Source: an uncultured delta proteobacterium
Lineage (GTDB): Bacteria; Desulfobacterota; WTBG01; CAIYCZ01
Reading direction: 5' to 3'
Assembly (NCBI GenBank): GCA_963803975.1
Contig: CAWDOY010000031.1
Span: forward strand, 8,745-72,744
DNA: 64,000 nucleotides
A model generated the notes under the pieces. It saw only the letters and a program-made list of their open reading frames with translations, did no database searches and was not told the origin of the DNA. The translations under genes were made by a program, and so were the position numbers. Shown one piece after another: positions 41,039 to 63,870 of this stretch; positions within the stretch are counted from its first letter, which is position 1; every line of letters starts with the position of its first letter.

Positions 41039-41212
41039 TTAGAAATGAAAGGGTTAGCGGTAAAAGTGTTATTGTACTATGAACTGCCGGAACTATTATA
41101 GCTTATTTATACACATAATGCCCTGTTTTGAAGGTTTTTCACGCGCATATTTTTAAATGAAAAAACAGGAGAAAAAAAGTTCTTGACTGCGTTCCTGAAA
41201 ATAACTATAAAT

Positions 41213-41230
41213 AAACCGACCGGTCAGTAT
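41213..41230. promoter_or_regulatory. putative TetR operator
   Basis: AACCGACCGGTCAGTAT imperfect palindrome. A related site GCTGACTGGTCAGTA lies at 41883-41897. Confidence 0.55.
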
Positions 41231-41248
41231 AGTAATAACAGCATCACC

Positions 41249-41851
41249 ATGGCAATGAAACAAAAGAAAGACACAGACAATAGAAAAGAACAGATACTGG
41301 AGGCTGCCCTGATTTGCTTCAACAAGGGCGGCTATTATAAAACCAGTATTGATGATATTGCGGCAAAGGCCAAAATAAGCAAAGGCGGCATCTATTATCA
41401 TTTTAACTCCAAGGACGAGCTGTTCCTGGAACTGTTTGATTTCAAGGTGAACAGATATTTTGAACAGCTCAAGATGTACGTGCAGACAAAAAAAGATCCG
41501 GCGGAGCGGCTGCTCGCTCTGGCAAAAAGAACCGGCGATGTACTTAAAGAAAACAGTGATTTTTTCAAGTTCTGCCTGGAATTTCTATCAATGGGAGTCA
41601 GGGAGCCTGGTATCCGCAAGGGCATGACCCATTTTTACAAGAACACGGTTAAAACCTTTATCGACATTATTAACGATGGTATTGCCAGCGGCGGACTGAA
41701 GAAGATGAACCCGGAGAAGACCGCCCGTGTGATGTATTTTCTCTTTATGGGTACTTTTTTCACCTATTTCTCGACCAATATTGATTTTGATCTTATTGAC
41801 CAGGAAACGTTTAACATGGAAGCCTTGCTGAAAGGCATTCAGGCAGACTGA
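41249..41851 (+). CDS. TetR/AcrR family regulator
   Basis: KEQILEAAL..F..GYYKTSIDDIA...SKGGIYYHFNSKDELF. Confidence 0.93.
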   Translation: MAMKQKKDTDNRKEQILEAALICFNKGGYYKTSIDDIAAKAKISKGGIYYHFNSKDELFLELFDFKVNRYFEQLKMYVQTKKDPAERLLALAKRTGDVLKENSDFFKFCLEFLSMGVREPGIRKGMTHFYKNTVKTFIDIINDGIASGGLKKMNPEKTARVMYFLFMGTFFTYFSTNIDFDLIDQETFNMEALLKGIQAD

Positions 41852-41870
41852 GTTTTATAAAATAAATATG

Positions 41871-41908
41871 GCCGGAGAGTATGCTGACTGGTCAGTACAC
41901 TCTCCGGC
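41871..41908 (+). promoter_or_regulatory. long hairpin containing a putative TetR operator
   Basis: GCCGGAGAGT-ATGCTGACTGGTCAGTAC-ACTCTCCGGC. Confidence 0.5.
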
Positions 41909-41946
41909 ACACGACACAACAGAACAGTTAACGCAGGAGAGGGCAT

Positions 41947-43508
41947 ATGAGCTTACCAAAGGGAGCATACCAGGCACTGGAAGACGCGCTGGGAGCGCGA
42001 TACGTGTGCGATGAGCCGGCGGTTACCAGCGCTTACAGTTACATGTGGCTTATTTACAGCACCCATGCGCAGTCAGGGCGGTACCGGCCTGCTGCGGTGG
42101 CGCTGCCCGGAAGCACCGAGGACGTGCAGACCATCATAAAAATCGCCAACCGCTATAAATTCAATTACATCCCGGTGGGCACCAATCTGCTTCCCCCCAC
42201 CATTCCGGTCCGGCCGGATACGGTCATTATCGACCCGAAGCGGATGGACAAAATCATCGAAATTGATCAGAAGAATATGTACGCAGTGGTTCAGCCGTAT
42301 GTAACCTATGCTCAGCTTCAGGCCGAGGTGATGAAACTGGGGCTGACCATCACGGTTGCCGAGGCTGGCTCCCAGGTTTCAGTGCTGGCAAACAACATGT
42401 TTCAGGGCATGGGCGGCACCGGGCACAAGTTCGGCTATAACCGGGGTGTGCTGGGATGCGACTGGATACTGCCCAACGGCGACCTGCTGCATCTGGGCTC
42501 GCGCGGCAACGCCGGCGGCGAATGGTTCTGGGGCGACTGCGCCGGGATGAATCTGAAAGGGCCTGCTGCGCGGCGACTCGGGCCACTGCGGCGGGCTGGG
42601 CATGGTGACGGCCATGGCGGTCAAGCTCTTCCCCTATCCGGGACCGCCGGTATTTCCGGTGAAGGGAAAAAATCCGAATTTCACCGCGGAGTTCCCGCAT
42701 GACCGGTTCAGGCTGAACCTGATTAAATTCCCTGAGCGGAAAAAGCTGATCGATGCCATGTATGAGATCGGCCACGCTGAAATCGCAGCAGCTGTGCATG
42801 AGGAGCCGGCAAGCATGATTCTCTCCTATGCCTCTCCGTCTGTTGAGTATTTCTGGGAGCGCTGGCCGGAGTTCCAGAAGCAGTGGCGCAATGTGATGTC
42901 AGTCGTGCTCATCGGGTTTTCTTCTTCACGCCAGGTGGAATACGAGCAGAAGGTGCTTGACGCAATTGTCAGCCGAGCTGGGCGGTGAATACATCCGCGA
43001 AGGCTCGGAGCTGTGGAAGACCGCGGAAGACAACCTGGGCGAAAACTTAAGGACCGGCTCTTCCAACCGTTTGTTCCGCATCGCCGGCGACTTCTTTGTC
43101 ATCGGCGGGTTCAGCTTCGACTCCATTGACCAGAGCTACAAGATGAGCGAGGAGTACATGTGGCCGCTCATCGAGGAGGCGCAGAAAAAGGGCCATTTCG
43201 TCGAGGACGACACCCACAACGACTGGCTCAACTCCTACCAGCTCGGGCAGATTTCCGAGACCGAGCCGCTCATCTATTTCGAGCACGACCTTGAGGCGGG
43301 CGCCTCTTTTATCAACGGCTATGTCCAGACTATCGTCGAAGCAGTGAAGCGCAAAATGTCCCCCACCTGGCCGCTGGGCCCCATGAACTACATTGCCGGC
43401 CCGCACCGCTGCAACTACCATGAGCTGGTGCTGAAAATAAAGAAGACGCTTGACCCGCGTCTGACCTCCAATCCCGATTATCCGGTGCCGCAGCAGCCTC
43501 CGGGTTAA
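41947..43508 (+). CDS. FAD-linked oxidoreductase (VAO/GlcD-type fold), frameshifts near 42560 and 42975
   Basis: PAAVALPGSTEDVQ, KRMDKIIEID, VQPYVTYAQL, LPNGDLLHLG and C-terminal KKTLDP..SNP. Confidence 0.85.
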
Positions 43509-43640
43509 ACACCGCGGAGGGCGCAGAGAAATGCAGATAAGATCTGGACTCAGGAAATCGAAAAATAAATATTGTCCCTTTATGAGCAAAGTCCAGATTC
43601 AATAAAATAATTCTGGTTAATGAAAAAAAGGAGATTACCA

Positions 43641-45182
43641 ATGCCTGCAAAAATTCCTGCCAAGGTAGATTATATTAAACCCCTTGAGGATAAGCCCTTT
43701 CGGGAGGTGGTGCGGGAAAAGAAAGAGTATCTTGAGGAGCTGAAGAAAAAGCTGGAAGCGATTGTCGGCGCTGAGAAGGTTTCAGATGAGGCTGAGCTTC
43801 TTAAAAAATATTCCCGGGACAAAAGCCTTGCCACCCCCGGCAAGCCTGCCTTTGTTGTTTTCCCGCACACCGCGGATGAAGTCTGCAGGCTGGTGCGGCT
43901 GGCAAACGAAGAGCTGCTGCCCCTTATCCCGGCAAGCTCCGGCACCCATAATTACGGATGCACGATTCCCCGCATGGGCGGCGTCGTTATAGATCTTTCC
44001 GGGTGGAAAAAAATATTGAAGATTGACCACCGCAATCGCGCTGCGCGCATTGAGCCCGGTGTCACCTATAATGAGCTTTCCGAGGCGCTGAACAAAGAGG
44101 GCCTGCGGCCGCTCATGCCGCTTTTGCCGCGAAAAGACCAGTCGGTGCTGACAGCTCATCTGGAGGCGCACCCCATGATGATCCCCGAGTTTAATTACAG
44201 CGAGCCGCTCTACACGGCGGAAATCGTCATGCCCAATGGTGAGATATTCCGGACCGGCTCCGCGGCAAGCGGTACGCCGGAAACCATCCACACGGACATG
44301 GTCGGCCCCTGGGGCCCGGGTTTTGACTGGAACCGGCTCTATACCCGCAGCCAGGGAACGCTGGGCATTGTTACTTGGGGAAACATAATGGCCGAGCCCC
44401 TGCCGTCAAAGCAGAAGCTCTATTTTACTCCCGGCCGCACAATAACAGACCTCACCAGCTTTACCTATACGGTTCAGCGCAAGTGGCTCGGCTATGAATG
44501 CTTTATCCTGAACCGGGTTAACCTTGCGCTCATGCTCGCCGAGACCATGCCGGAGGATTTTGCCGTGCTTAAAGATAAACTGCCTGAGTACGTGCAGATC
44601 TTCTGCATTGCCGGGCTGAAGCGTCTCCCGGAAGAGCGGATAGCCTACCAGGAAGCGGATTTCTTTGCCGCTGCCCAGGAGGTTGGGGTCCAGCCGCAGC
44701 CCGCGCTGACTGACGTGCCGCAGGCTGCTGCCTTCTTTTCCCGCAACCTGTCCCGCTGCTGGGACCGCGAGGTGTATTGGAAAGACGCGTACAAGGGTGC
44801 CAGCGCTGATATATTCTTTATCACCACCATGGACCGGGCAGCACAATGCATAGCGGAGATGCAGCAGGCAGCCTTCACCCATGATTATCCTGCCACCGAG
44901 ATTGGCGTGTATCTGCAGCCCATTGAGAACGGCAGGGCCGCGCACCTTGAATTTAATTTCTTCTATAATCCGGAAGATCCGCAGGAATGCATCCGCATTA
45001 AAAAGCTCCACGCTGCAGCGAGCGAGCGGATGCACGCACTGGGCGCGGTTTTTACCCGGGCCTACGGCAGCTGGGCTGAAATGGTTACTACGCGCAACGC
45101 CGTACAGTTCCAGGCGGCAAAAATGATCAAGGAGACCCTTGATCCCAAGAACATCATGAACCCGGGCAAGCTGGGGCTTTAG
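43641..45182 (+). CDS. FAD-linked oxidoreductase (VAO/GlcD-type fold)
   Basis: VVFPHTADEV, IEPGVTY, GEIFRTGSA, GPGFDW..SQGTLGIVT and LDPKNIMNPGKL. Confidence 0.9.
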   Translation: MPAKIPAKVDYIKPLEDKPFREVVREKKEYLEELKKKLEAIVGAEKVSDEAELLKKYSRDKSLATPGKPAFVVFPHTADEVCRLVRLANEELLPLIPASSGTHNYGCTIPRMGGVVIDLSGWKKILKIDHRNRAARIEPGVTYNELSEALNKEGLRPLMPLLPRKDQSVLTAHLEAHPMMIPEFNYSEPLYTAEIVMPNGEIFRTGSAASGTPETIHTDMVGPWGPGFDWNRLYTRSQGTLGIVTWGNIMAEPLPSKQKLYFTPGRTITDLTSFTYTVQRKWLGYECFILNRVNLALMLAETMPEDFAVLKDKLPEYVQIFCIAGLKRLPEERIAYQEADFFAAAQEVGVQPQPALTDVPQAAAFFSRNLSRCWDREVYWKDAYKGASADIFFITTMDRAAQCIAEMQQAAFTHDYPATEIGVYLQPIENGRAAHLEFNFFYNPEDPQECIRIKKLHAAASERMHALGAVFTRAYGSWAEMVTTRNAVQFQAAKMIKETLDPKNIMNPGKLGL

Positions 45183-45226
45183 AATTCTGATTGCTCATAA
45201 AATCAATGATCAGCAAAGGGAGGTAG

Positions 45227-46094
45227 ATGATGCCGTTTATAATCAATCAGAGCCAGTGCGTCGGGTGCGGCTCCTGTATCGGCAACTGTCCCAACCGGGC
45301 GATTATACGCAAAGGTGCAGAAGTAATTATCACGGGCATGTGCAGTGACTGCGGGATTTGTATACGACACTGCGGGCTGGATGCAATCAATACCGGGAAG
45401 TCAAGAGCAGTGTTTGATAACAGGAAGCAGGACCGGGCATTAAAAGAGAAGCTATTGTTAACGCGTAACATTGTCGCCATGAAATTTGCCGACAAAGCAC
45501 CTGCAGGGGTACCCGAAGAAGACGGGCTCAATTTCTGGTGTCATATCTGCGGAGATATTTTTGAGGGACATGAAGCCCCAATTTTTTTCGGCGCTAAGAA
45601 CAGTGTCTGCGGCGGTTCCTCGGCACTTGGCCTCGGGACCCGAAGCGTTAACAGGGACGATGTCCTTGCCATGATCGAGGTCGTTACCGGTGACGGGGGA
45701 TATTTTACTACCAATGACCTGTTTACGAAGCCGAGAACGCTTTTCCCTAAATTCCCCAAAGTCTACGGAGGGATGGTCATTGCTTCACTGTGCGCGGATG
45801 AAAATGCCGGATATCATCCTCATACCGGTAAACGGAAAACAGATGTGCATGCTTGCTACGGCGTATGCGTTTGAAACCGGCGAGATAATAACGGGCAACG
45901 CCGGAGGCGGCACCTGCCTGGCAACGGTTACGATTCCTTTTCTGGAGAACCGGCCGGTTTTCTCCTGCGGCGATCACGGCGGACGAATGCATATGCGGCT
46001 GAAGGATGAGGAGAGCCTGGCATGCTTTCCGTACCGTCTGGTGCCCGGAACGGTAGCAAATCTGGACAGAACGGTTTTTACCCAGGGTGGTTAG
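45227..46094 (+). CDS. 2x[4Fe-4S] ferredoxin + DUF169-like fusion, frameshift near 45795
   Basis: CVGCGSCIGNCP, CSDCGICIRHC, WCHICGDIFEG and GDHGGR. Paralog of 21886..22755. Confidence 0.8.
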
Positions 46095-46197
46095 CGGGGG
46101 TATGCTGCGGACCCGTGTAAAAGAACGGCACTGAATAGAAGTCTGCAGATGTATCATGCAGGGCTTTTATAATAAGGGTATAAAAAGGGACACACTC

Positions 46198-46956
46198 ATG
46201 ACTCAAAAAAATAATTTTACTTTCCCGCGCATTGAAAATGTAGAGCTCATAAAACAATGTTATGCAGATATAAATGGAGCCCAGTCATTCCTTCCGGTAA
46301 AAAACTGGCAGACAGATATCTGGACTGCCGAGGTACAGTGTTCCACAGGCACGGTCTTAAAAAAAGCGGGTCTGGCTGTGGTTGAGATGACCGGCGGTAG
46401 GGTGGAAGGCGCTTCTGCCGATATGACCCTGCTGCAAACCCTGGCCTGGCCTGTCAACCCCTGTATCCCGGGATTAATCATCATGGCCAGCACCGGTAAG
46501 ATCGAGGACCAGAATGTCATGGTAACAGTTTACCTTGATCTTATTATACAGAGCGGAGCACTCAATCAAAACGACAAGGATATGCTGACATCTGCTCTTA
46601 AGACGGTCTGCGACCGGCATGGACAGAGCCTGGATGAATATCAGTCTTTTCTCGCCGGCCGCGGTATGCTGGGCGGATGTGCTGCTGAGTGCGGCGTACT
46701 CTATTTTTTTGAGGAAAGCGATGCGGCACTTCTTGAAGACATGATCCGTGAAACACTGAATGCATATGGAAAAATCATCGAGCGGGGGAAAGATATACTC
46801 CCCGCAGCAGATGATTTTACAACAATGAAGGACAGCCATAATAAAATTATTGAATGGATGTTGTCTGAAGACTACGGCGTTAAAGTCGCGCGACAGAATA
46901 ATATCCCGCTGGAAGTCATGGAATCATACGGGTTTCCGCCGTCTAAAAACTCCTGA
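46198..46956 (+). CDS. HemF (coproporphyrinogen III oxidase)-fold protein, divergent
   Basis: GTVLKKAGL, AWPVNPCIPG and IIEWMLSEDYGVK...GFPP align by eye with HemF G.VFEKAGV, IHP.NP..P and YVEFNL.YDRGT...S.PP. Confidence 0.55.
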   Translation: MTQKNNFTFPRIENVELIKQCYADINGAQSFLPVKNWQTDIWTAEVQCSTGTVLKKAGLAVVEMTGGRVEGASADMTLLQTLAWPVNPCIPGLIIMASTGKIEDQNVMVTVYLDLIIQSGALNQNDKDMLTSALKTVCDRHGQSLDEYQSFLAGRGMLGGCAAECGVLYFFEESDAALLEDMIRETLNAYGKIIERGKDILPAADDFTTMKDSHNKIIEWMLSEDYGVKVARQNNIPLEVMESYGFPPSKNS

Positions 46957-47132: not shown

Positions 47133-48395
47133 ATGAGTCTTGAAAAATACCGCTGGGATCTGGTGAACTGTGAGCGCTGCTCCATGTGCAAGTGGGTTCA
47201 TCCGTGGAGCGTCAAGAGCCATGACCGGGCGCGCATCTGCCCGTCAATGCAGGAATATCTCTATGATGCCTATTCTGCCCAGGGCCGCTTTGACGTGGCG
47301 CGGGCGCTTCTGGAAGGAGAGATAGAGCTCACGGACAAGGTGCTGGAAGTGATCTACGCCTGTACCCTGTGCGGCGGCTGCGATGTGACCTGCAAGTTCA
47401 CCCGGGACATGGAGCCGCTTGAAGTGCTGCACGATCTGCGCAAATACGCGGTGGAGCAGGGCAAGGGGCCGCTGCCCGGCCACATGCCGGCGGTGGACAG
47501 CATCCGCAAGAACAGCAACCCCTGGCTCCAGCCCAAAACGCGGCGGGCGCACTGGGCGCGGAACCTGAAAGTGAAGGACCTGAATAAAGAGAAAGCAGAG
47601 GTGCTCTATTTCGCCGGGTGCACTTACTCTTACAATGCCAACCTGCAGAATGTGGCGCGGGCAACACTGCGCATTCTGCAGAGCGCGGGCGTTGATGTCG
47701 GCATCCTGGGCAACAACGAGGCCTGCTGCGCGAGCCCGGTATTAAAGGTGGGCATGGATGAAATGTTTTTCGAGCACGCGCGCAAAAATGTCAAACTGTT
47801 CAACGGCCTGGGAGTAAAAAAGGTCATCACGTCCTGTGCCGGCTGCTACGGAATCTTTCAGGGGCACTATCCGGGAGTGGAGACCATGAATTATGAAGTG
47901 GTGCACAGCGTGAATCTTCTGGACCAGCTTATCCGCGAGGGAAAAGTGAAGTTTAAAAACAAGGTGCCCATGAAGGTCACCTGGCATGACCCCTGCCATC
48001 TGGGACGGGGCGGGGAAAAAGAGGACCTCTGGGAAGGCGAGCGCCTTAAGTGGGGGCTCAGTGATCCGCCGCGGCAGAGAAACTTCGGCTCGAACGGCGT
48101 GTTTGACGCGCCGCGAAATATTCTCCAGGCCATACCGGGTATCGAGTTTACGGAGATGGAGCGGATACGGGAATTTTCCTGGTGCTGCGGCGCCGGCGGC
48201 GGCGTGAAATCAGCGTTCCCCGAGTTTGCCCTGCACAGCGCCCAGGAGCGCATTGCCGAGGCAACAGATACCGGAGCTGAAGCAGTGGTCACCTCGTGCC
48301 CCTGGTGCGAGTTAAATCTTGCCGATGGAGCCGCAGCGTCTGGCAGCGCGCTTAAAATCGTGAGCCTGGTTGAGCTGATAGAGAAAGCGTTATAA
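47133..48395 (+). CDS. HdrD/GlpC-like Fe-S oxidoreductase with CCG domains
   Basis: CERCSMC, CTLCGGCDVTC, YFAGC, EACCAS, HDPCHLGR, CCGAGGG and SCPWC. Confidence 0.92.
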   Translation: MSLEKYRWDLVNCERCSMCKWVHPWSVKSHDRARICPSMQEYLYDAYSAQGRFDVARALLEGEIELTDKVLEVIYACTLCGGCDVTCKFTRDMEPLEVLHDLRKYAVEQGKGPLPGHMPAVDSIRKNSNPWLQPKTRRAHWARNLKVKDLNKEKAEVLYFAGCTYSYNANLQNVARATLRILQSAGVDVGILGNNEACCASPVLKVGMDEMFFEHARKNVKLFNGLGVKKVITSCAGCYGIFQGHYPGVETMNYEVVHSVNLLDQLIREGKVKFKNKVPMKVTWHDPCHLGRGGEKEDLWEGERLKWGLSDPPRQRNFGSNGVFDAPRNILQAIPGIEFTEMERIREFSWCCGAGGGVKSAFPEFALHSAQERIAEATDTGAEAVVTSCPWCELNLADGAAASGSALKIVSLVELIEKAL

Positions 48396-48430: not shown

Positions 48431-49240
48431 ATGAAAAGAGCGCTGCTCATTGTGCTGGCAGGATTTGCCTATTTCTTCGTGTCAGTGATGCTTTTCATTC
48501 CGTTGCGGATGAAGCCTATCCCCAACTACAACCTGTTCTTTTTCTCCCTCATGAGTGCAGTGTTTCTCTTTCTTTTCTATAAAGCCTGCACGGTCAGCAG
48601 GGAAAGTACCGGCTATTTGTACGCACTGTTTGCCGGCAATGCACTATGGCAGGTAATTGGAGAGCTTGCCTCGTTGCGGGTCACAGAAGGACTGATACTG
48701 CAGTTCAGCGATGTTAATATCAAGCTGGTGGGCGGATACCTGTATGTTCTTGCGGGCTGGATTCTGCTCTTCATCATGTGGAAGACACAGGTGCTGCGGA
48801 GGAGGATCTGTTTTTGTTTTGTGATATTCCTGGGCATATGGTCCCTGGAGCTGTATCTGGACAACTACTCTTCTTCCGTGCCGGTTGAATTGATGCCCCG
48901 GGTCGCCAACATCATCGGGATAGTCTTTATTGCGGTGGCCCTTGTCTTAGTCTATCTGGCTAAAAAAGCGGCAAGCGTCGAGAAGCAGACGGTCCTGGGA
49001 GGCCTGTTGTATTTATCCGTCTCCATAGTGCTGATGGCATTTACCCAGTGGCAGAAGCCGCAAACTTTCTATCTGCTGCATGAGAAACCGGTGATAGAGC
49101 ACGAGATAAAGGCGCTGCAGGAGGAGCTGTCATATCTCAACCAACTGCGGGAGAAGCTCGGCATACGTGACAATATTTCCCTGTCCGAGCAGCTGAGCGT
49201 GAGGGAACTGAAGGAAAAGTCACCTGAGCGAAAGGAGTAG
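48431..49240 (+). CDS. integral membrane protein (about 7 TM) with C-terminal coiled coil
   Basis: Hydrophobic segments throughout, GGAGG RBS, tight operon spacing. Confidence 0.75.
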   Translation: MKRALLIVLAGFAYFFVSVMLFIPLRMKPIPNYNLFFFSLMSAVFLFLFYKACTVSRESTGYLYALFAGNALWQVIGELASLRVTEGLILQFSDVNIKLVGGYLYVLAGWILLFIMWKTQVLRRRICFCFVIFLGIWSLELYLDNYSSSVPVELMPRVANIIGIVFIAVALVLVYLAKKAASVEKQTVLGGLLYLSVSIVLMAFTQWQKPQTFYLLHEKPVIEHEIKALQEELSYLNQLREKLGIRDNISLSEQLSVRELKEKSPERKE

Positions 49241-49251
49241 TAGAAAAGCTG

Positions 49252-50523
49252 ATGCGTTATGATATTGCAGTGGTCGGTGCCGGTCCTGCAGGTCTGATGG
49301 CCGCAAAAACAGCAGCTGAACATGGGCTCAGGACAGTTCTTATTGAAAAAAGGAAAGACGTTTCTAAAATAACCCGTGCCTGCTGCCAGCAGTTTATAAT
49401 GGATGAGAACTTCCAGGGAGAAACCATACGTATTGCTAAGGGAAAAGTAATTTTTACAGAAAATGGGTTTGACGTTGATTACCATGGCCCGCTTCTCAAG
49501 GTAACGGATAAATATTTTGTCTCGCCCGGTGGACATGCGATTCACTTTACCAATAATGACAACAGCCCGATTGTAGTTAAATTTGATAAGGGCCTTCTGT
49601 TGCAGGGAATATGGGACCAGTGCGACAGGCTGGGTGTGACATTACGCACTGCCGCACTTGTCTGCAATGCTGAAGATAGAAGCACCGGCGTTGAGATGAC
49701 CATAAACGCTGGCGGAGTTTCCGAAAAACTGCACGCAAAGAAGCTCATAGTTGCAGACGGCGTCAATTCAAAAACAGCAGAAAAACTCGGGTTCAATCAG
49801 GGCAGGATCTGTTTTGCAACCGCTCTGTGCACGCTCTCGGTAATTGAAGGACTTCAGGATTTTGAGCCGTGCACACTGAAAAGCTATATGGGCCGCGCCT
49901 ATCAATCATTTGCACCCTTGATCATGGGCCCGTCTCTTGACGGAAGCGATCTCAGGTATCTGGTTATTATAGGCAATAAAGCCAGGAAACCAGAGTTGAT
50001 TTATCATGATGTCGTCACACAGAGCCCCCTGGCATCGATGTTTGCCAGCGCACGGGTTGTAAATAAAATGGCATGTATGGCAACAGCATGCAGTTCCATG
50101 AAGATTCCGTACCGGGGCAATACTCTTGTGATTGGAGATGCTGCTGCCTACGTAGAGGTTGAAACGCAGGGAGCGCTCACCTGCGGCTTTCGGGCCGGCA
50201 CTGCTGTGCATAGGGAACTCTCCGGTAAAGGCGGTTTTGTGGAATACACCAGATGGTGGCAGGATTCTTTTGAATTTAACAGCGATGATTATCTGCAGGT
50301 GGCCCAGGGCTTTGCCCTGGTTCCAACGTATACCGATGATGAACTCGATTATCTTTTTTCATTGATCGAAAATGAGACCCTGGCAGGGACTTTTAACCAG
50401 TACAAATCACCCCGGCTTATGTGGGGAGCGTTTCTCAGCCACAAGAAAAGAATTGCCCGTGAACGGCCCGAACTCCACAAAAAAATACTTACCCGGAAAT
50501 TGTCTCTGAGCGATGTTCTGTAA
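49252..50523 (+). CDS. geranylgeranyl reductase/FixC-like FAD-dependent oxidoreductase
   Basis: VVGAGPAG, LIEK, IVADGVNS and LVIGDAA..E.QGAL.CG. Confidence 0.85.
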   Translation: MRYDIAVVGAGPAGLMAAKTAAEHGLRTVLIEKRKDVSKITRACCQQFIMDENFQGETIRIAKGKVIFTENGFDVDYHGPLLKVTDKYFVSPGGHAIHFTNNDNSPIVVKFDKGLLLQGIWDQCDRLGVTLRTAALVCNAEDRSTGVEMTINAGGVSEKLHAKKLIVADGVNSKTAEKLGFNQGRICFATALCTLSVIEGLQDFEPCTLKSYMGRAYQSFAPLIMGPSLDGSDLRYLVIIGNKARKPELIYHDVVTQSPLASMFASARVVNKMACMATACSSMKIPYRGNTLVIGDAAAYVEVETQGALTCGFRAGTAVHRELSGKGGFVEYTRWWQDSFEFNSDDYLQVAQGFALVPTYTDDELDYLFSLIENETLAGTFNQYKSPRLMWGAFLSHKKRIARERPELHKKILTRKLSLSDVL

Positions 50524-55043: not shown

Positions 55044-55283
55044 ATGAATGCACAGAACCAGGGAAAAATTAAAAAAACAGTTTTCAGCGTTGATGAAGCC
55101 CTGTGCACCGGGTGCGGAAAATGCGTCAAAGCGTGCCCCATGCTGATTTTGAAAATTAAAGAAAAGAAGTGCATCATGGTGAAGGAATTCATGTGCCTTG
55201 AATGCGGCACCTGCATGCGCAAATGCCCGGAAAAGGCCATTATGATTGAAGGTCTTGATATCATGGGAACCATAGAAGAATAA
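55044..55283 (+). CDS. 2x[4Fe-4S] ferredoxin
   Basis: CTGCGKCVKACP and CLECGTCMRKCP. Confidence 0.92.
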   Translation: MNAQNQGKIKKTVFSVDEALCTGCGKCVKACPMLILKIKEKKCIMVKEFMCLECGTCMRKCPEKAIMIEGLDIMGTIEE

Positions 55284-55304: not shown

Positions 55305-56030
55305 ATGGAGGAGAAAATTCAATTTACGCCGTTTACCAAAATTCTTTTTGAGCTGCTTGCGGAACTGAACCCGGTCCAGGTCTATGACTACGAGGGCATG
55401 GACATCCGGGATATCAATGAGTTTGAGCTGGAGGGAGAGAAGTGCTCGGCCAAATGCTACAAGGCTGAAAAGCTGGAAAAAATCTGCGTGTCGTCGTTGA
55501 ACTTTTTCGGCCAGATGGTGGCGGATGTCATCATTATCACGCCGGGGCATGAGTATGACCTGCCCTACTTTGTTGTGGACTGGGACGAGTCGGAAGATCA
55601 CATCTTTTTCATCGCCGACCTGCTCCCGAGCGATGACCCCGGGAGAAACCTCGATTATCTTGAAAACTATCTTTATAACCCCCTCGAAGAGCTCTATCAG
55701 AACTACAGTGAAATGCCCGGCCTGAAAAACAGCGTGTTTCACTGGGTGCGCGCGGTCCATTCACCCTACATCATCACCGGAACCATAAAAAAAGAGCCGA
55801 AGAACATGGACATGCTTCTGAACTGCGCCAAAGATTATTTAAAGGCGTGGGTCGGGCTCTGGAAAAACGCGCAACCGCGCGACCCCAACTCTGACTATAT
55901 GAAGCTGGTATACGCGCGCAGGGCCAACATCAGAAAGTTCTACCGCGAAAACGATCCGGGCGCAGGCCCGCTCACCAAATTTTTAGGGTCTGACCAGGCG
56001 CAGCGGCTGCTCGCCGTTATAGAACCATGA
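55305..56030 (+). CDS. ferredoxin-dependent bilin reductase (PcyA/PebA/RCCR)-fold protein 1
   Basis: KLEKI, IITPGHEYDLPYFVVD, IADLLP, HSPY, YLKAW and ENDPGAGPLTKFLGSD follow the FDBR motif order. Confidence 0.7.
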   Translation: MEEKIQFTPFTKILFELLAELNPVQVYDYEGMDIRDINEFELEGEKCSAKCYKAEKLEKICVSSLNFFGQMVADVIIITPGHEYDLPYFVVDWDESEDHIFFIADLLPSDDPGRNLDYLENYLYNPLEELYQNYSEMPGLKNSVFHWVRAVHSPYIITGTIKKEPKNMDMLLNCAKDYLKAWVGLWKNAQPRDPNSDYMKLVYARRANIRKFYRENDPGAGPLTKFLGSDQAQRLLAVIEP

Positions 56031-56189: not shown

Positions 56190-56894
56190 ATGGACGTTAA
56201 GTACCCGCTGCTCGATGCAGGCAGAAAGGCCTTGGAAAAATTGTCCCTGAAATCTGTTGCCATAGACCCGGCACTCAAGCATATCGAAGCCGAGGACGGC
56301 AGAGTGTATATAGACGTGTATCGCGGAGAAAAAATCTCCAAGGCTGTCTTCTCCGCCATTGAGATTCACTCCATGTCGGTTGCCGAGCAGTCGATAATTA
56401 TCTGGCCGGACGAGTCCTATGATTTTCCGGTATTCTGGTGCAATCTCACGCAGATGCCGGGCATGAGCTTCTTTATTTTTGATTTCATGCCGGTCATGGA
56501 CATTGTGGTGTGGCCTGAATACGGAGAAAAGTATTTGCTGGGTCTTCTCGAGATGAAGGCGAACGCGCTTGAAAAACTCGGTGACGGGGTCGCGGAAAAA
56601 CATTTTGATCTCAGTTCCCTTGCCGGCTGGGCATTTTCTCCCTATCGCACGCTGTTCCGCCTGACCGAAGACGGTGTGGCCCATATTGACCCGGTTGTTC
56701 AGGAATATGGCCAGGCCTATGTAAAGCTGTGGCAGGAAGCAGCGCCGGTGCAGAAAGCTGAGGAAGCGGCATTCTGCAAGCGCAAAAAGGCAGCGGTACG
56801 GAAAATCATGGCTGAGAATGATCCCGGTCACCCCCTGATGCTCGGGGTGTTCGGTGAAGAAAAGACGGAAAAGGTCTTTGAGATTGTTTTTTAG
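56190..56894 (+). CDS. ferredoxin-dependent bilin reductase-fold protein 2
   Basis: GGAGGAG RBS, then IWPDESYDFPVF, IFDFMP, FSPY, YVKLW and ENDPGHPLMLGVFGEEKTE...VF. Confidence 0.7.
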   Translation: MDVKYPLLDAGRKALEKLSLKSVAIDPALKHIEAEDGRVYIDVYRGEKISKAVFSAIEIHSMSVAEQSIIIWPDESYDFPVFWCNLTQMPGMSFFIFDFMPVMDIVVWPEYGEKYLLGLLEMKANALEKLGDGVAEKHFDLSSLAGWAFSPYRTLFRLTEDGVAHIDPVVQEYGQAYVKLWQEAAPVQKAEEAAFCKRKKAAVRKIMAENDPGHPLMLGVFGEEKTEKVFEIVF

Positions 56895-56969: not shown

Positions 56970-57776
56970 ATGGAAACAGGAGCGAGAAGGTTTATTGACC
57001 AGCATGTTATAGTAACCGGCGCCGCGACCGGCATCGGACGGGCCATTGCCCACCGTTTTGCCGCTGAAGGTGCAAAGGTGGTAATCGCCAACCGCAACCG
57101 CGAGCGTGGCGAGAAGGTTGCGCAGGAGATCAGGGATAAGGGCTGGACAGCACAGTATATCAGGGTTGATGTAGCTGAGCTGGAATCAATCAATGAGCTC
57201 ATCAAAAAAGCAGTCAGTACCTTCGGGCCGGTTCACGTGGCAGTATCAAATGCCGCGGTGAGTGAGACCCAGTCATCGGCACTTGACCTAAGTGTTGAGG
57301 AATGGGACCGGATTTTTAATATCAACGCGCGGGGCTCATTTCTTTTCAGCCGCGCCTGCGCGCAGAACATGATTGACAACAATATTCCGGGCTCGATCGT
57401 CACGCTCTCATCAATTATGGCCCGCTCCGCAAAAAGCATGTCAGGAGCGTATCCTGCCTCAAAGGCAGCGGTCATCATGTTCACCAAGAATCTTGCCAAG
57501 TTGCTTGGGCCCATGGGCATCAGGGTGAACTGCGTGACCCCCGGCGTGGTGGCGACTGAAATCTGGCATGAAGTGGAATCAGAGATGATGATGGAGAAGG
57601 ACACATTTGCGGACTGGCTGATTGAGCAGTCAGTTGCCAGCGGGCAGCTGCTCATTCCGCGGATCGGTAAAGCGGAAGAAATCGCTTCGGCCGTTGCCTT
57701 TCTCGCTTCAGGCGAGGCATCCTATATCACCGCCCAGGTGCTCTCGGTTGACGGCGGCATGGACTGGTGCTGGTAA
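56970..57776 (+). CDS. short-chain dehydrogenase/reductase
   Basis: TGAATGIG, SNAA, YPASK, IRVNCVTPG and VDGG. Confidence 0.93.
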   Translation: METGARRFIDQHVIVTGAATGIGRAIAHRFAAEGAKVVIANRNRERGEKVAQEIRDKGWTAQYIRVDVAELESINELIKKAVSTFGPVHVAVSNAAVSETQSSALDLSVEEWDRIFNINARGSFLFSRACAQNMIDNNIPGSIVTLSSIMARSAKSMSGAYPASKAAVIMFTKNLAKLLGPMGIRVNCVTPGVVATEIWHEVESEMMMEKDTFADWLIEQSVASGQLLIPRIGKAEEIASAVAFLASGEASYITAQVLSVDGGMDWCW

Positions 57777-57949: not shown

Positions 57950-57976
57950 ATGTTTTTCTGTTGCTGGTGATAAGGA

Positions 57977-58357
57977 TTGCCTGTGGAACTGAATCAGATT
58001 CTGTATATCGTTGCCTACTGCACGTTCATGGCGGGAGCGGCAAAATCCTTTCGCGACAATGGCAGCACGCTCTCTGTCTGGATAATGTCCGGCGGTGTTA
58101 TCCTTGATTTTCTCATGAGTATTCTGCCGGTGCTCGGGGTCAAGGCGCTGAGCTCAGACCTGAAGGGCACCAACGGCGTTATCATCTTTGCCATCGCGTT
58201 CGGCTTTGTGGTGTGGCTCACCTATGTTGCGGCGCTCATTGTGCGCAAAAAGGGCAATAAGCCGCTGTTTCATGTGCTCATCGCAGTGGTCGAGATTTCC
58301 TGGTTCATAGATTTCATTTCATTCCTCTACGGGATGTATAAGTTTCCGCTTCATTAA
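57977..58357 (+). CDS. small four-TM membrane protein
   Basis: Four hydrophobic segments, co-oriented in the operon. Confidence 0.7.
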   Translation: MPVELNQILYIVAYCTFMAGAAKSFRDNGSTLSVWIMSGGVILDFLMSILPVLGVKALSSDLKGTNGVIIFAIAFGFVVWLTYVAALIVRKKGNKPLFHVLIAVVEISWFIDFISFLYGMYKFPLH

Positions 58358-58381
58358 TTTCCAAGAACTGGATGTAACATC

Positions 58382-59844
58382 ATGACACAAAACCACTCTA
58401 AAGACCTGTTGAAGGCGCTTTGTGACATTGTCGGAGCCTCCTATATTACCGATGATCCGGTGACGAGGTTTACCTATACGCAGGATGCAAGCCTGTTTGG
58501 CGGCACCCAGTCAGCGCTCGTCGTACGGCCGGGTTCAACTGAAGAGGTTTCGCGCATTGCGGCTCTTGCCAACCGGCATCGCGTGCCTATTGTCACGCGC
58601 GGCGGCGGCGCCACCATTTACGGCTCGCCCGGGGCGATGCGGAGCGCACCGTGCTGCTTGATATGACGCGCATGGACCAGGTGATTGAAGTCAACACGGC
58701 AGGAATGACCGTCACGGCACAGGCAGGAATTATCATTAATAAGCTCGTGCTTGCCTGCAGGGAGAAAGGCGTGTACATGTGGGCGCCGTTTGCCCCGTTG
58801 CATATGGTATCTCTTGGAGGCTGGATATCAGGCGCTGCCGGAGCAGCGGGTCTTTGGACCGATATCGTGAGCATCACCGTGGTGCTTGCCGATGGCACCA
58901 TCGTGCAGACCGGCGGCGGGCCCGGAACGAACATTCACCAGCCGGTCTTTTTCAACCGCAACCTGGGCGGCCCTGATTTTGCCGGCATATTTATTGGTGA
59001 CGGCGGCTCCTTCGGCATTAAAACCCAGGCGACCATCCGCACCACGAGACAGCCTTCTCTGGTGCGGGCTGGCATCTTCGCCTTCGACGAGCTTGAGCCT
59101 GCGATGGAGATGGTGCGCATGCATGTGGAGCGGCGCACGGTGCAGCGTTACGATCCGGTGCTGGTTTTCGGCGCCGGAGCCATGAAAAATTTTGTCGGGG
59201 ATACCGATGCGGTGGCGCCCTTTACCGTGCAGGCGATGATGCAGGGCCATGACGCGGCGGAGCTTGATGCCAAGCTCGCCATCATACACAGCCTTGCCGA
59301 ACAGTGCGGAGCACGGCGCGACCCCATGCTCGACGCCATGGCAGAGGCCATGGGAACGCCGACGGGTGAAGATAGCGAAATGGACTGGATGGCCATTTTC
59401 AACAGCTTCGGCATCGCGGCATGGCTGCCCTTCACGCTGCCCCGGCAGAGTTTTCCCCCGGTATATAAAAAGCTCATCAGCTGGCGCAATGAGCGGCTTA
59501 AAGAGGCTGAAAAGCTCGGCTTGCGCCTGCGCACAACCTGGGAGTTCTTCACCTCAAGTGACCCGAGCACCATAACCGGGGAGATCGACGCTTTCTTTGC
59601 CGATGTCGAGAACCCGCAGGCTACAGCATTTGCCCGGACCCTTATGGCAGACTTTCAGAAATACGCCCACAGCCTTGGCTCAATTGATGTCTACAACCAG
59701 GGGTTCATGGCCGACCTGAATGCCTCATGCTGGTCGCCAGGCTTCAAGCGCCTGTTTGATGCGGTTAAGACGGTACTTGATCCGAACGGCATTATCAATC
59801 CGGGGCTGTGGGCGGGAAGCTATCTGCACGAGGGAGGAGAATGA
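58382..59844 (+). CDS. FAD-linked oxidoreductase (VAO/GlcD-type fold), frameshift near 58630
   Basis: VVRPGSTEEV, RGGG, DMTRMDQV, GPDFAGIFIGDGGSFGIKT and LDPNGIINPG. Confidence 0.88.
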
Positions 59845-61062
59845 CTATGGCGAAATCGACCATGAAGGAGCTTGAAAAGGTCAAACACTTTATCTACAGC
59901 TGTCGCAAGTGCGGTGTGTGCCGCTACAAAATGACGGGCAAATTGCCGTATGTCTGCCCGGTGAAACAGGCCAGCCCGGGGTTTGAAAGCTTTTCCTCCC
60001 GCGGAAAAATAATACTGGCGCAGGCCCTTCTGGAAGGGCAGATCGAACCATCCGCCGGACTGGCAAGCGCCGCCTACAGTTGCACCATGTGCGGCAACTG
60101 CATGACCCAGTGCGGCGCCACCGATCCGGACACGAACAGCCCCCTCGTTGATAATCCCGCGATAGTCGAGGCGCTGCGGGCTGATTTGCTGCGGGAGCAT
60201 CCCGAATATGTACCTGAAGCGTATCACCGCGCGCTGGCCGCGACACGCCAGTTCGGCAATCCCTGGGGCATGCCGCGTTCGGCTCGGGGGAAATGGGCAA
60301 AGGGGCTCAAGATCAAAGATGCGCAGAAAGAGCAGGCCGATGTACTGTTGTTTGCCGGATGCACCATGAGCCTGAATCCGGAGCTGACCCCGCGCATTAA
60401 AAAAGCTGTAGCTGTGCTCCAGGCAGCAGGGGCTGATCTGGGAATACTTGGCGCAGCGGAGCCCTGCTGCGGCAGCGTGCAACAGCGCATCGGCGCCCGG
60501 GAGCTTGCCGCAGAGATGATTGCAAACAACGTTAAACTGCTCAACAGCCTTGGCTGCGAAACTATTGTGACGCTCTGCGCCGGCTGCTGCAATATGTTTA
60601 GAAAAGAATATGCTCCGGCGGAGGAAAAACTTGCGCCGAAGGTATACCATCTCGTTGAATATCTGGCTCGGCTTATAAAGGAAAACAAACTTACCTTTAC
60701 AAGAGAGCAGAATATAACCCTGGCCTATCATGACCCCTGCCATCTGGGACGACATCTCGAGGTATTTGATCCGCCCCGCGCTATACTCAAAGCACTGCCG
60801 GGCATAACACTTGTGGAGCGGATAGCCACACGGGAGAACACCATTTGCTGCGGAGCGGGTGGTGGTATGCGCCTTTTTGACGGAGGCATCTTCGCGCAGG
60901 ACATCGGGCCTTGAAGCGGTGAAGGCCGCGCGCGATGTCGGCGCTCAGGCGCTTGTTTCTGCATGTCCGTTTTGCGAAACAAATCTTTCCGCAGCCTCGC
61001 AGATTGATAGTCCGCTGCCGGTTTATGATATTATTGATCTGGTAGTGACGCGCTGGGGATAG
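59841..61062 (+). CDS. HdrD/GlpC-like Fe-S oxidoreductase, frameshift near 60905
   Basis: CRKCGVC, CTMCGNC, FAGC, EPCCGS, HDPCHLGR, CCGAGGG and SACPFC. ATGA overlap with the upstream stop. Confidence 0.9.
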
Positions 61063-61121
61063 AGAGTAAACAAAATAATCTCTGTGAGCTCTGTGGTTAA
61101 CTTTTAAAAAAGGAGAATGCC

Positions 61122-61703
61122 ATGCCCGCATTGCAAAAAAAGACCAAGGCCCGGATAAAAAAAGACATCATCAGTTTCCTCGATAAAACCTCAGGCGGCG
61201 TTGACCCGAAACCGGGGAAATACGGCTGCGGCATGCTGCATCACAACGCGCTGGTGCTGGCAACCTCGTATAATGATACGCCGCGCGCCACGGTGCTTGA
61301 ATTTTTCAATGAAGGTCTCAGCATCTATATCTTCGGCGAGCCGGGCGGCAAAATAGCAAACCTCAAAAGAAACCCCAAAGTATCTGCCGTGGTCTACGAG
61401 CAGCCCCTGGACCACGGAAAATTTCAGCGCAGCCTGCAGATCTTCGGCACCACCGAGCTTATCAATGTGCGGAATAACGCAAAGCTCTTCAATGCAAAGA
61501 TGAAAAAATGGAACCTGCTTGCAGTGGGCAAAAAGCTTCTGAACCCGATGCTGAAAGCGCAGAATCTCTCCGGCAAAGCAGCTGACGAGACCGTGATAAA
61601 ATTCCTCTCCGCGCTCAACATCATAAAAATCATTCCGCAGCACATCATCCTGAAAGAGTACCACCCGGACTTCTCGATGCACAAGTACGAGTGGAAGAAG
61701 TAG
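61122..61703 (+). CDS. pyridoxamine 5'-phosphate oxidase family (split-barrel) protein
   Basis: LVLATSYNDTPRAT, GEPGGKIANLKRNPKVS and SLQIFG. Related to 1743..2246. Confidence 0.85.
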   Translation: MPALQKKTKARIKKDIISFLDKTSGGVDPKPGKYGCGMLHHNALVLATSYNDTPRATVLEFFNEGLSIYIFGEPGGKIANLKRNPKVSAVVYEQPLDHGKFQRSLQIFGTTELINVRNNAKLFNAKMKKWNLLAVGKKLLNPMLKAQNLSGKAADETVIKFLSALNIIKIIPQHIILKEYHPDFSMHKYEWKK

Positions 61704-61707
61704 GTTA

Positions 61708-61818
61708 CCCCCTCACCCCAGCCCTCTCCCGCCGGGGGAGAGGGATAGCTGTTTAAATGTCCCAGAGAAGCTGGTTAAATCTCCCCTCCCTTCACGGGAG
61801 GGGATTAAGGGGAGGGGA
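61708..61818. repeat. paired CCCCTC/GGGAGGG palindromic elements
   Basis: CCCTCTCCC..GGGAGAGGG and CCCCTCCC..GGGAGGGG hairpins. Relatives at 24680, 31997 and 63913. Confidence 0.7.
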
Positions 61819-61821
61819 ATC

Positions 61822-62882
61822 ATGCAGTACCGCAGACTCGGAAGGACCAACCTCAATGTGTCAGCCATCGCCTACGGCGGGCTGCCGACCGTGTTTCAGC
61901 CCCCTGATGTAGTAATCGAGGCGATCAACTACGCCCTTGACCAGGGGGTGAACTATTTTGACCTTGACGAGGGCGGCAACCAGTTTGCTTCGGAGAAAGT
62001 ATATCTGGATGGCGCCTCCAAGATCGGCCAGGTGCTAAAGGCGCGGCGCGGCGACTGCTATCTCGGAGTGAAGAGCATGCGCCAGACCTATGAGGAGCTC
62101 AAGTATGATGTAGACCTTGCTCTGGAGAGACTGGTGAAGGGCACCTCCCGTGAAGTGATAGATATTTTCCAGCTTGCTTTTCTTGACAGCCCGGAAAAGG
62201 TTAAGCTGGTTCTTTCCAGGCAGGGGGCTTGAGGGCCCTTGAAGAGGCGCGCGAAGAAGGAAAGATCGATTTTATCCGGCCACTGCCCACAACCCGAAGA
62301 CCCTTCTGCAGGCCATGGAAACCGGCCGCTTTGATGTCATCGAATTTCCCTTTAACATCATTGAGAATGAATATTTAAATAAGGTAATGCCCCTCGCGGA
62401 GAAGATGGACCTGGGAACGGTCGTGATGAAGCCGGTTGGCGGCGGCCAGCTGGCAAGCCTCTATGACCTTTCGCTGCGCTGGATTCTGCAGCACGAGGTT
62501 GACTGCGTGATTCCCGGCATGCGCAATATCGAGGAAGTTAAAAAGAACGTGGTGTTCGGCAGCCGCGCGGAGCCGCTGTTAGATGAGGATCTTGAGGCTT
62601 GAGAAGCTGGGAAAAGAAGTTGGCGCGGAATACTGTCACCGCTGCGGCTACTGCATGCCCTGCCCGCAGGGCATCATCATCGTCGGGGTGATGGACCTTA
62701 TGCGCGGGCAGATGCTCAGCCCGGACATGAAGAAGCGCTCCTACAATGAGGTGCTTAAAAACGCCTGAAGAGCGACCCGGCAAACTGCGAGCAGTGCGGC
62801 CAGTGCGTGGAGAAGCGCCCGTTCAAAGCTGCCGATACCAAGCCTTATGCAGCGGGCCGTCGAACTGTTCGGGGATGATTAA
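61822..62882 (+). CDS. aldo/keto reductase with C-terminal 4Fe-4S domain, several frameshifts
   Basis: MQYRRLGRTNLNVSAI, GVNYFD, MKPVGGG, IPGM, CHRCGYCMPCP and CEQCGQC. Confidence 0.88.
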
Positions 62883-63870
62883 GTCGGTTTCCTTCCTTCC
62901 ACCAGACAGTCCATTCGTTCGCCGCTGCGCGGTAGTCTTCACATCCTGAAAGCCGGCCTGTCAGCAGTGTCTTTTTTACTTCCCTGAAGGTACGGGTATC
63001 ACCGCCGGTGGTGTGCACGAGCATGTTTACTGCAAAGAGCGCGTCTGCCGGCGGCCGGGTGCGGGATTCATCCATTACGTGGTCGCGGATCAGTACCGCT
63101 CCGCCCGGCTCAAGGGCCTGGTACATTTTTCGGTAAAGAGAAATATTCTCCTGCGGGCTGTTCTGATGAATGATTGCTGAAAGCAGCGCCAGGTTCTACT
63201 CCTGCGGCAGTGCATCCTTAAAAAAATCCCCTGCCGCAAGCTTCACCCGCTCAAGATATCCTTCAGCCTTCAGCCGTTCGGCAGCAAGCGCGATGACATC
63301 CGGCAGGTCAAAGATAACAGCGGTCATGTTGGATTCTTTTCAAGAAATGCGATAGTGTAGGTACCGGACCCTCCGCCGATGTCAAGCAGCCGTTTAAAGC
63401 GGCCTGCATTATATGATGCGGCAATATCCTGCGACATGCTTTTGCCGATAACGTGCATGGCGCCGATGAACGCTTTGGTCACCGCCTCGTCCTTTGCGTC
63501 AATGACTGAATCTCAGGCTGGTATTTTTCCCCTCTTGCACTGTTTCCGTAAGCCGTGTCCAGTTGTCCCACATGTTGTTCATGTGCAGGAGCATGGGAAG
63601 GACTGATTCAGGGTGACGCGAGGAAAAGAAAGCTCCGGTCTCACTCAGCGCGTAGCGCCCATTCTTCTTTTTTCAGCAACATAAAAACAACCAGGCAGTC
63701 AAGTATCCTCTCGGCAGCCCGCGCATCAGCCTTCAGCTTGCGCGCAAGCTCCTCCGCGGTCTGCGGCTTTCCATCAAGCATGGTGAAAACATCAAGCTCG
63801 GCGGCAGTGAGAATAATACGCGCTTCATCCACCCGGCGTATTCAACGAAAATATCCGGTGCCTGGGACAT
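62879..63870 (-). CDS. SAM-dependent O-methyltransferase with dimerisation domain (Methyltransf_2 family), several frameshifts
   Basis: ILTAAELDVF, AFIGAMH, LLDIGGGSGTY, FDLPDV, AGDFF, SAIIHQN and LEPGGAVLIRD. Confidence 0.85.

Follow-up and report, generated by a model that had tools for sequence, protein, structure and literature searches.

What would an uncultured delta proteobacterium of the Desulfobacterota do with a gene cluster in which ferredoxin-dependent bilin reductases (FDBRs) stand beside ferrochelatase-like and HemF-like proteins? The window (the whole stretch of 64,000 nucleotides that was analysed, G000:C31:8745-72744) derives from a genome of 4.25 Mb that is assembled in 57 contigs and 98% complete, and the cluster occupies its 41.2-62.9 kb region. 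The cluster genes very probably act on tetrapyrroles, a prediction made likely by five unrelated tetrapyrrole-specific folds that share the same range and neighbourhood. The cluster is further proposed, at a rough probability of 0.55, to be one TetR-associated module of a lineage-wide set with which scavenged tetrapyrroles are taken up, demetallated, reduced and cleaved without O2. An earlier, sequence-only reading of this DNA had proposed a tetrapyrrole-degrading pathway that operates without O2. The genome-wide gene set makes the tetrapyrrole substrates of that proposal likely, but its catabolic direction is still something we infer, and the supposed pathway is better viewed as a conserved module that is not self-contained and belongs to a dispersed, heavily paralogous toolkit.

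The FDBR proteins of the cluster are encoded by a tandem pair of plus-strand genes (55305-56030 and 56190-56894) that adjoins a 2[4Fe-4S] ferredoxin gene (55044-55283, plus strand). Both proteins exceed the PF05996 cut-off of 31 bits (55.8 bits for 55305 and 60.4 bits for 56034/56190), and their nearest solved structures are HY2 (E 6e-12) and GtPEBB. A profile built from 22 sequences places PEBB, HY2, PcyA and PebA all far above red chlorophyll catabolite reductase (RCCR), with E-values of 2e-31 for PEBB versus 2e-10 for RCCR. Asp74, Asp92, Asp105 and Asp217 of 55305 fall at the acidic-residue positions of HY2, PcyA and PebA/B; in 56190, the central Asp is replaced by Asn, as in HY2, and the C-terminal Asp is retained. 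The window pair has no PcyA, PebA or PebB equivalog match (NCBIfam, 1e-12), and none of the three FDBR paralogues that have an NCBIfam hit or were tested at 1e-12 passes these equivalog cut-offs. In a tree of 44 rows, which includes 9 known FDBRs and several long branches, has no RCCR or other outgroup and is not used to claim an order of events, the window pair lies inside a well-supported clade of 21 rows that holds none of the known FDBRs. Other paralogues of this genome (C1, C39a, C24a/b and C40) group on the side that holds the known enzymes. A separate search returned 1223 hits at E<=0.001, with 150 representatives. The active-site residues differ widely among the paralogues. One FDBR clade (L012:8658-9452 and orthologues in G012, G001, G010 and G035) is missing the C-terminal Asp, has an N-terminal membrane helix in the protein of this genome and sits by HemG-like, geranylgeranyl-reductase-like (GGR-like) and uptake-like genes; this clade is possibly a periplasmic bilin-binding protein.

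The ferrochelatase-like protein is encoded at 52714-54161 (plus strand), in a frame that is broken in the window and would specify a membrane-anchored protein of about 481 residues. The model of an intact relative (pLDDT 95) has ferrochelatases as its top Foldseek hits (E 1e-10), and the fold as modelled is that of a type II chelatase. The family comprises 353 homologues, many of which carry PF00762; the orthologue of 52714 gives no PF00762 hit, and paralogues score 26.3 and 24.4 against a cut-off of 27. The 52714 protein exceeds HemH in length and has an N-terminal transmembrane helix. His317, Glu404 and Asp407 are invariant and lie in motifs that we take to resemble those of HemH. Searches of the PDB sequences with the HemH-like protein, both single-sequence and profile, return nothing.

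The HemF-like protein (46198-46956, plus strand) has conserved cysteine residues (Cys138, Cys161 and Cys165) and no Pfam hit of its own. PF01218 is matched weakly by 19 of its 56 homologues, two paralogues in this genome score over the PF01218 cut-off, and the relation to CPOX/HemF receives an Atlas score of 0.94. CPOX is also the top Foldseek hit (E 0.012), a weak line since the single-sequence model is poor (pLDDT 36). The best paralogue scores 101 as a HemF equivalog (cut-off 297), and a PDB sequence search yields non-significant hits only. These comparisons, most of them weak, point to a CPOX/HemF relationship for 46198. Profile and structure searches place 52714, 55305 and 56190 in the HemH and FDBR folds and, by weaker lines, 46198 in the HemF fold, and the assignments first made from sequence alone, including the ferredoxin partner of the FDBR pair, are supported.

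The same folds are multiplied throughout the genome and recur across the class. PF05996 has 23 matches in this genome at 22 loci, which amount to 15 distinct paralogues (17-39% identity) after near-identical copies are merged. Among the 42 incomplete genomes of the class (21 of which reach 90% completeness or more with no more than 5% contamination), FDBRs are found in 32, with 6-22 matches each; by comparison, none of the 386 sampled genomes of the phylum outside the class has an FDBR, and the 13 genomes that match PF05996 in the phylum sample of 401 are all within the class. HemH-like (33/42), HemF-like (27/42), DPOR-B-like (22/42) and BchF (11/42) proteins occur in the same families as the FDBRs, and one family of eight genomes (f3) is without all five. 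A bchF gene is at most about 6 kb from an FDBR, HemH-like or HemF-like gene in five of the nine genomes checked: in G002 and G003 it shares a run with BciB/FrhB-like, HemG-like, HemH-like and AFOR genes, in G036 and G035 it lies within 5 kb of an FDBR gene, and in G018 it abuts a HemF-like gene. No such neighbour accompanies bchF in G007, G015, G017 or this genome, in which the BchF protein is over the equivalog cut-off. An FDBR gene is one gene away from a DPOR-like operon in G017, and on contig C3 of this genome two DPOR-like pairs are followed by chelatase-like, GGR-like and HemH-like genes. A tetrapyrrole-family neighbour within 6 kb is found for 11 of the 25 FDBR pieces versus 16.5% of random places, a comparison in which the neighbour list comes partly from the same neighbourhoods.

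Multiplication extends to the accessory families of this genome, which has five HemF-like and five HemH-like loci together with about 20 FAD oxidase, 17 CCG, 19 GGR-like, 23 AFOR, 12 DUF1302 and 13 MMPL loci. Modules of DUF1302, DUF1329, YCF48 and MMPL proteins stand beside other FDBR genes, and uptake-like modules are found by FDBRs in G010, G012 and G035 as well as in this genome; by its gene content, this appears to be a genome equipped for uptake and oxidation. Three nitrogenase-fold N/B pairs (G000:C3:156900-171600 and C50:21900-26800, the latter with two NifH-like genes) match DPOR BchB and COR BchZ best, below cut-off, and are assigned from these scores to an uncharacterised DPOR/COR-like clade. 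An old-yellow-enzyme protein (L034:16912-18285) encoded near the DPOR-like operon has bilirubin reductase as its best NCBIfam match, far below cut-off (275 vs 750). Genes for a corrinoid protein and URO-D/MtaA-like proteins (L018:11276-12881 and L015:7518-9495) lie near FDBR loci and could strip methyl esters.

The cluster was expected to recur as a neighbourhood, and it does so in the 20 stretches compared from 14 relatives, which were picked for having hits and thus yield no frequency. A near-whole cluster is present in G019 and G020 of the same family. The block in which FAD1, FAD2 and CCG1 go with HemF-like, flavodoxin-like and cytochrome split-barrel genes is found in two genomes of another family of the order (G012 and G014) and in one of a different order of the class (G036), and in G012 and G014 this first block includes TetR1 and the GGR-like gene. 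The second block (HemH-like, ferredoxin, FDBR pair, SDR, FAD3 and CCG2) is partly present in L005, L006 and G012. The neighbours in relatives include CoA-transferase, UbiD, amidohydrolase and Mo-hydroxylase genes. Eighteen DNA runs that contain at least 0.24 of the words of the stretch are labelled as freshwater or sediment metagenomes, one of them just as 'metagenome'.

Some 22 plus-strand genes form one run from 41249 to about 62880, which bears out the co-directional block and the two TetR regulators that were first described. The exception is the O-methyltransferase (Methyltransf_2) gene (62880-63870), which is frameshifted, closes the locus on the minus strand convergent with the run and thus cannot share the cluster transcript; its link to the cluster is uncertain, and it still adjoins the cluster in G019, G020 and contig C4. 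Nine cluster genes are frameshifted in the window. All are intact in relatives (L001 from G020, L002 from G019, and L043), with the ferredoxin-DUF169 gene judged through its paralogue at 21886, and the short-read contigs of relatives have indels at breaks 51555, 53100-53114, 53662, 53764, 60905 and 62277; therefore, the frameshifts are probably long-read or assembly errors. The broken genes were studied through the intact orthologues of relatives.

The oxidative genes of the cluster, all on the plus strand, are organised as FAD-linked oxidoreductases beside HdrD/GlcF-like Fe-S (CCG) proteins. FAD1 (41947-43508, PF01565, frameshifted) is a member of the vanillyl-alcohol oxidase/p-cresol methylhydroxylase (VAO/PCMH) superfamily, FAD2 (43620-45182) carries PF01565 and PF02913, and FAD3 (58382-59844) is frameshifted. 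CCG1 (47133-48395) has two PF02754 domains, and CCG2 (59847-61062) is frameshifted at about 60905. The intact orthologue of FAD1 has 4-alkylphenol oxidases, PCMH and glycolate oxidase as nearest structures, with the similarity confined to the FAD domain, and the FAD and CCG proteins score below the GlcD and GlcF cut-offs (FAD2 below that of GlcD). A frameshifted gene (45227-46094, Pfam Fer4 and DUF169) encodes a 2[4Fe-4S] ferredoxin-DUF169 fusion, the intact paralogue of which (21886-22833) lies in the window outside the cluster. The remaining enzymes are a thiolase (51474-52677, frameshifted), a short-chain dehydrogenase/reductase (SDR, 56970-57776) and an aldo-keto reductase (AKR, 61822-62882) with C-terminal Cys motifs that is also frameshifted.

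Two split-barrel (PNPOx) proteins are encoded in the run. The first (50669-51455, frameshifted near its start) carries, as judged from an intact relative, a single CxxCH heme c site and a hydrophobic stretch at its N-terminus, is probably exported and matches no structure; the second (61122-61703) is cytoplasmic. The sequence-only reading had named both, the heme c site included, and its three FAD oxidoreductases, two HdrD-like proteins, SDR, AKR and thiolase are likewise found by Pfam (FAD_binding_4 in three proteins, CCG in two). Its tetrapyrrole links for the GGR-like flavoprotein (49252-50523, 19 copies in the genome) and the Methyltransf_2 protein carry little weight: the proteins are present but fall well below ChlP- or BchU-type cut-offs, scoring 71.8 vs 158.8 bits for the GGR family and 79.8 vs 276 bits for BchU, and the structure hits of the GGR-like protein cover the FAD motif only. 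Two genes missing from that reading belong to the cluster as well, namely a membrane protein of no assigned family with about six hydrophobic segments (48431-49240, six copies in the genome) and a small membrane protein, also without a family (57977-58357).

TetR regulator 1 (41249-41851, plus strand, PF00440 E 9e-18) is preceded by a 12-base operator-like palindrome (41216-41227), upstream of its probable start, and a second copy (41884-41895) lies upstream of FAD1. The motif occupies both places in G012 and the place before tetR1 in G019. It has eight matches genome-wide compared to about 16 expected under a crude base model, so there is no general enrichment, and what lends it weight is its conserved position alone. 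TetR regulator 2 (54348-54968, plus strand) is not at this place in G019.

Other features of the window and assembly lie apart from these genes. An intergenic, GC-rich palindromic repeat (61708-61817) is probably a dispersed REP-like element, because many unrelated contigs align there. Further split-barrel or split-barrel-like genes occur at 640-2246, outside the cluster. On the minus strand (3571-6817), a frameshifted catalase-peroxidase-like gene and a Fur/PerR-like regulator are recognised by translation only, and the former hints that the organism tolerates oxygen and requires heme b. Contig C4 (G000:C4:1-16811, L008) bears a second copy of the second half of the cluster, with an FDBR pair that is 98% identical and upstream genes that are 61-95% identical; with other near-identical contig pairs (C24/C36, C39/C40 and C40/C41), it suggests mixed strains in the assembly.

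The direction in which this gene set works is read from what accompanies it and from what is missing. Heme oxygenase is absent from the 42 class genomes, as are BchM, BchG over cut-off and the type I reaction centre proteins PsaA/B. In this genome, there is no type II reaction centre, ChlH/CobN, dsrA or phytochrome PHY domain; phycobiliproteins, BBAG globins and V4R were not among the search targets. The impression that the window holds no heme oxygenase or phytochrome thus extends to the class for the former and to the genome for the latter. Since there is no O2 route to biliverdin, no bilin client was found and there is no way to finish chlorophyll, the genes are read as catabolic; the heavy paralogy, the uptake-like modules by FDBRs and the catabolic neighbours (thiolase, CoA-transferase, amidohydrolase, UbiD and Mo-hydroxylase) argue in the same direction.

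A mechanism can be proposed on this basis. Hydrophobic pigments (chlorophyll derivatives, phycobilins and heme) would enter via the DUF1302/DUF1329/YCF48/MMPL modules, after which the task of binding the ring and extracting its metal would fall to the membrane-anchored ferrochelatase-fold protein. Side-chain differences (vinyl, formyl) would be levelled by BchF-, BciB-, GGR- and AFOR-like enzymes encoded elsewhere in the genome. ATP-driven DPOR/COR-like reductases and ferredoxin-fed FDBRs would then act on methine bridges and on double bonds of the ring, bringing the pigment to the colourless stage of a porphyrinogen or bilinogen, with the many FDBR paralogues covering many substrates and positions and the HemF-fold protein binding the reduced tetrapyrroles. 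The VAO/PCMH-type flavoenzymes and their CCG partners are envisaged to turn a methyl group or methylene bridge into an azafulvene by dehydrogenation, in analogy to the quinone methide that p-cresol methylhydroxylase forms; water would then add, and the chain would break into formyl-pyrroles. The SDR, AKR and thiolase (in relatives, also CoA-transferase, UbiD and amidohydrolase) would feed the pieces into central metabolism.

Several observations weigh against O2-free tetrapyrrole catabolism. A ring-opening enzyme was not found: no HutW/ChuW is over cut-off, the best match (211 vs 400 bits) is classed as HemW, and the BchE-like radical SAM protein is far below cut-off. This B12 radical SAM protein (G000:C8:10980-15539; BchE is its best match, at 207 vs 481 bits) is encoded downstream of two FDBR genes and is a candidate for ring-E or macrocycle chemistry. 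The central catalytic Asp is missing in many FDBR paralogues, and 14 of the 25 FDBR pieces have no tetrapyrrole-family neighbour within 6 kb. The class genomes are kin, such that their shared range is one evolutionary observation rather than many and co-occurrence among them is not independent evidence. The RNA runs X19 and X20 contain small shares of the stretch, mostly contigs of relatives at 88-95%, and demonstrate no expression of the cluster. Substrates of many unrelated kinds are known for the FAD/CCG, GGR, AFOR, SDR and AKR families. DUF1302/DUF1329 proteins are proposed, in the text available of 10.1101/2020.07.04.188060, to serve as esterase or in export rather than uptake.

Other opposing evidence concerns synthesis. 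CobN/BchH-family chelatases occur in 20 of the 42 class genomes, with all three that were tested passing the BchH cut-off, and BchH-BchI-BchD operons, which point to metal insertion, are found in G014, G011 and G037 (L098:2-10091 in G014, L099 and L101). The G014 operon is next to FeoB and a DtxR-like regulator, and the genomes with these operons are without bchM and bchG. In this genome the early steps that lead from glutamate to uroporphyrinogen are encoded, with hemL, cysG-N, a hemC motif, cobA-hemD, hemB, hemA and a cbiK-like gene at G000:C1:204900-212900, and no AhbD over cut-off; thus, heme synthesis may be all that the divergent HemF-, HemG- and HemH-like proteins do. Motif scans for canonical HemE, HemH, acsB and ccoN are blank, a weak result since the motifs used also missed hemA and hemL; the one HemH motif hit that was checked is a D-Ala-D-Ala ligase.

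On such evidence, the URO-D-, HemF-, HemG-, HemH-, BchHID-, BchF-, BciB- and DPOR-like proteins could build heme or a novel tetrapyrrole pigment or cofactor, from the organism's own uroporphyrinogen or from scavenged chlorins, with the FDBRs tailoring the product. A demand for heme is indicated by the 32 reading frames that contain at least four CxxCH motifs and by the catalase-peroxidase of the window, set against the missing canonical AhbD, and Murphy et al. list the bch homologues as a near-complete biosynthetic route in the text available of bioRxiv 10.1101/2021.03.22.436540. Salvage or synthesis is nonetheless judged less likely, if the best of the alternatives, as BchM, BchG and PsaA/B are absent from the 42 genomes and ChlH from this one, and a single product would have no call for 15 FDBRs, for a dozen modules of the uptake-like kind or for five HemF-like and five HemH-like loci. 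The N-terminal membrane anchor of the HemH-like protein and the thiolase, CoA-transferase, amidohydrolase and UbiD neighbours, which are typical of catabolism, also speak against it.

A second alternative is that the FDBR, HemF and HemH folds are repurposed for lignin-derived phenols, indoles or other N-heterocycles in anaerobic aromatic catabolism. The 4-alkylphenol oxidases and PCMH that are nearest to FAD1, the UbiD, Mo-hydroxylase and amidohydrolase neighbours in relatives and the variable active sites of the FDBR paralogues would fit; it is improbable given that at least five unrelated tetrapyrrole-specific folds (FDBR, CPOX, ferrochelatase, BchF and DPOR/COR) co-range and stand side by side, that the BchF of this genome is over its equivalog cut-off and that the known FDBR, RCCR and CPOX proteins use tetrapyrroles (PMC10151467, in the sections available). 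Least probable is that tetrapyrroles are only electron sinks or are detoxified to colourless forms, like gut bilirubin to urobilinogen, with no chain cleavage or carbon gain: reductases prevail (FDBR, DPOR/COR-like, GGR-like and the old-yellow-enzyme protein closest, below cut-off, to bilirubin reductase), dsrA is missing and no ring-opening enzyme was found, but an inducible catabolic operon is suggested by the TetR operator-like sites, the thiolase and the FAD/CCG modules, which are oxidative.

Chlorophyll and phycobilin reach anoxic sediment in large amounts. If O2-free catabolism is the function, the lineage offers named candidate organisms and enzymes for the breakdown of these pigments without O2. 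A broader and more tentative proposal, held at somewhat less than even odds, is that four families of this one class are specialist anaerobic degraders of sediment chlorophylls, phycobilins and hemes, in which biosynthetic folds (DPOR/COR, BchF, BciB, HemF, HemG, HemH and FDBR) are turned catabolic and the ring is opened reductively with addition of water instead of through oxygenase or ChuW chemistry; the FDBR radiation may then be a deep, O2-independent branch. Such a branch, if true, would contradict the proposal that no FDBR existed before oxygenic photosynthesis. The 15 paralogues in a genome without heme oxygenase also bear on the argument, made in the available part of PMC10151467, that all known enzymes of the FDBR fold are ultimately O2-dependent. 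A novel pigment or a novel late heme route would be new as well, were salvage or synthesis the function.

The literature search, which covered few subscription papers, found no description of the cluster, the FDBR expansion or bacterial anaerobic chlorophyll or bilin catabolism, in agreement with the earlier remark that no pathway of such composition is described. Lineage sequences may already be present in the outgroup of PMC10151467 and the FDBRs in the tables of Murphy et al. The accessible portion of PMC10151467 describes pre-PcyA proteins of heterotrophs, with Ca. Schekmanbacteria sequences in the RCCR outgroup, and assigns pre-2 and pre-3 to delta-proteobacteria (chiefly Myxococcales); its main text nowhere uses 'Desulfo' or 'Deltaproteobacteria'. 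The pre-PcyA enzymes are assayed on biliverdin (PMC13446030, likewise in part). The Binatota preprint (10.1101/2020.09.14.296780) explains orphan bch genes, in the text available, in three ways, of which none is catabolic.

Among the closest gene sets described is that of Ca. 'Anaeropigmentia' (bioRxiv 10.1101/2021.03.22.436540, available in part), which shares comA, bchF, DPOR/COR-, BchE-, BciB- and ChlP-like genes with this genome, is similarly without a reaction centre or chlG, and is similar in genome size and G+C content. By these traits, and by traits only, this genome is matched to Ca. 'Anaeropigmentia'. The comA gene (coenzyme M biosynthesis) is at G000:C37:16419-17138 (E 1e-92). The preprint interprets the bch genes as leftover biosynthesis, and its main text has 0 occurrences of 'bilin' and 'chelatase'. 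The present analysis provides an alternative reading of bch genes without a reaction centre.

Similarities to characterised systems are partial. The FAD_binding_4 proteins beside CCG partners resemble p-cresol methylhydroxylase/vanillyl-alcohol oxidase and the GlcD-GlcF modules in arrangement and nearest structures; here, the likeness is limited to the FAD domain, with scores below the GlcD and GlcF cut-offs. The de-chelatase HmuS is reportedly a precedent for a chelatase-family protein working in reverse and is said to be CobN-like, whereas the candidate de-chelatase here has a HemH fold and a membrane anchor. RCCR has the FDBR fold, is ferredoxin-dependent and has a catabolic role in the plant PAO-phyllobilin pathway; the window FDBRs give weak PF06405 hits, and their profile is closer to PEBB than to RCCR. 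The plant chlorophyll route needs the oxygenase PAO, and ChuW/ChuY is the anaerobic heme utilisation system cited in PMC10151467 (both from its available sections). ChuW/HutW is alike in handling heme without O2 and differs in that no HutW/ChuW is over cut-off here. Bilin biosynthesis systems combine heme oxygenase, FDBR and biliprotein, by contrast with the 0/42 heme oxygenases of this class and the lack of a PHY domain in this genome. With the known FDBRs (PcyA, PebA/PebB, HY2, PebS and pre-PcyA; PMC10151467 and PMC13446030, as far as available), the proteins of this cluster share PF05996, HY2 and GtPEBB as nearest structures, an adjacent ferredoxin and the acidic positions of 55305. The known FDBR systems have one to three such proteins, whereas this lineage has 15 paralogues in the present genome and a window pair that belongs to a separate clade.

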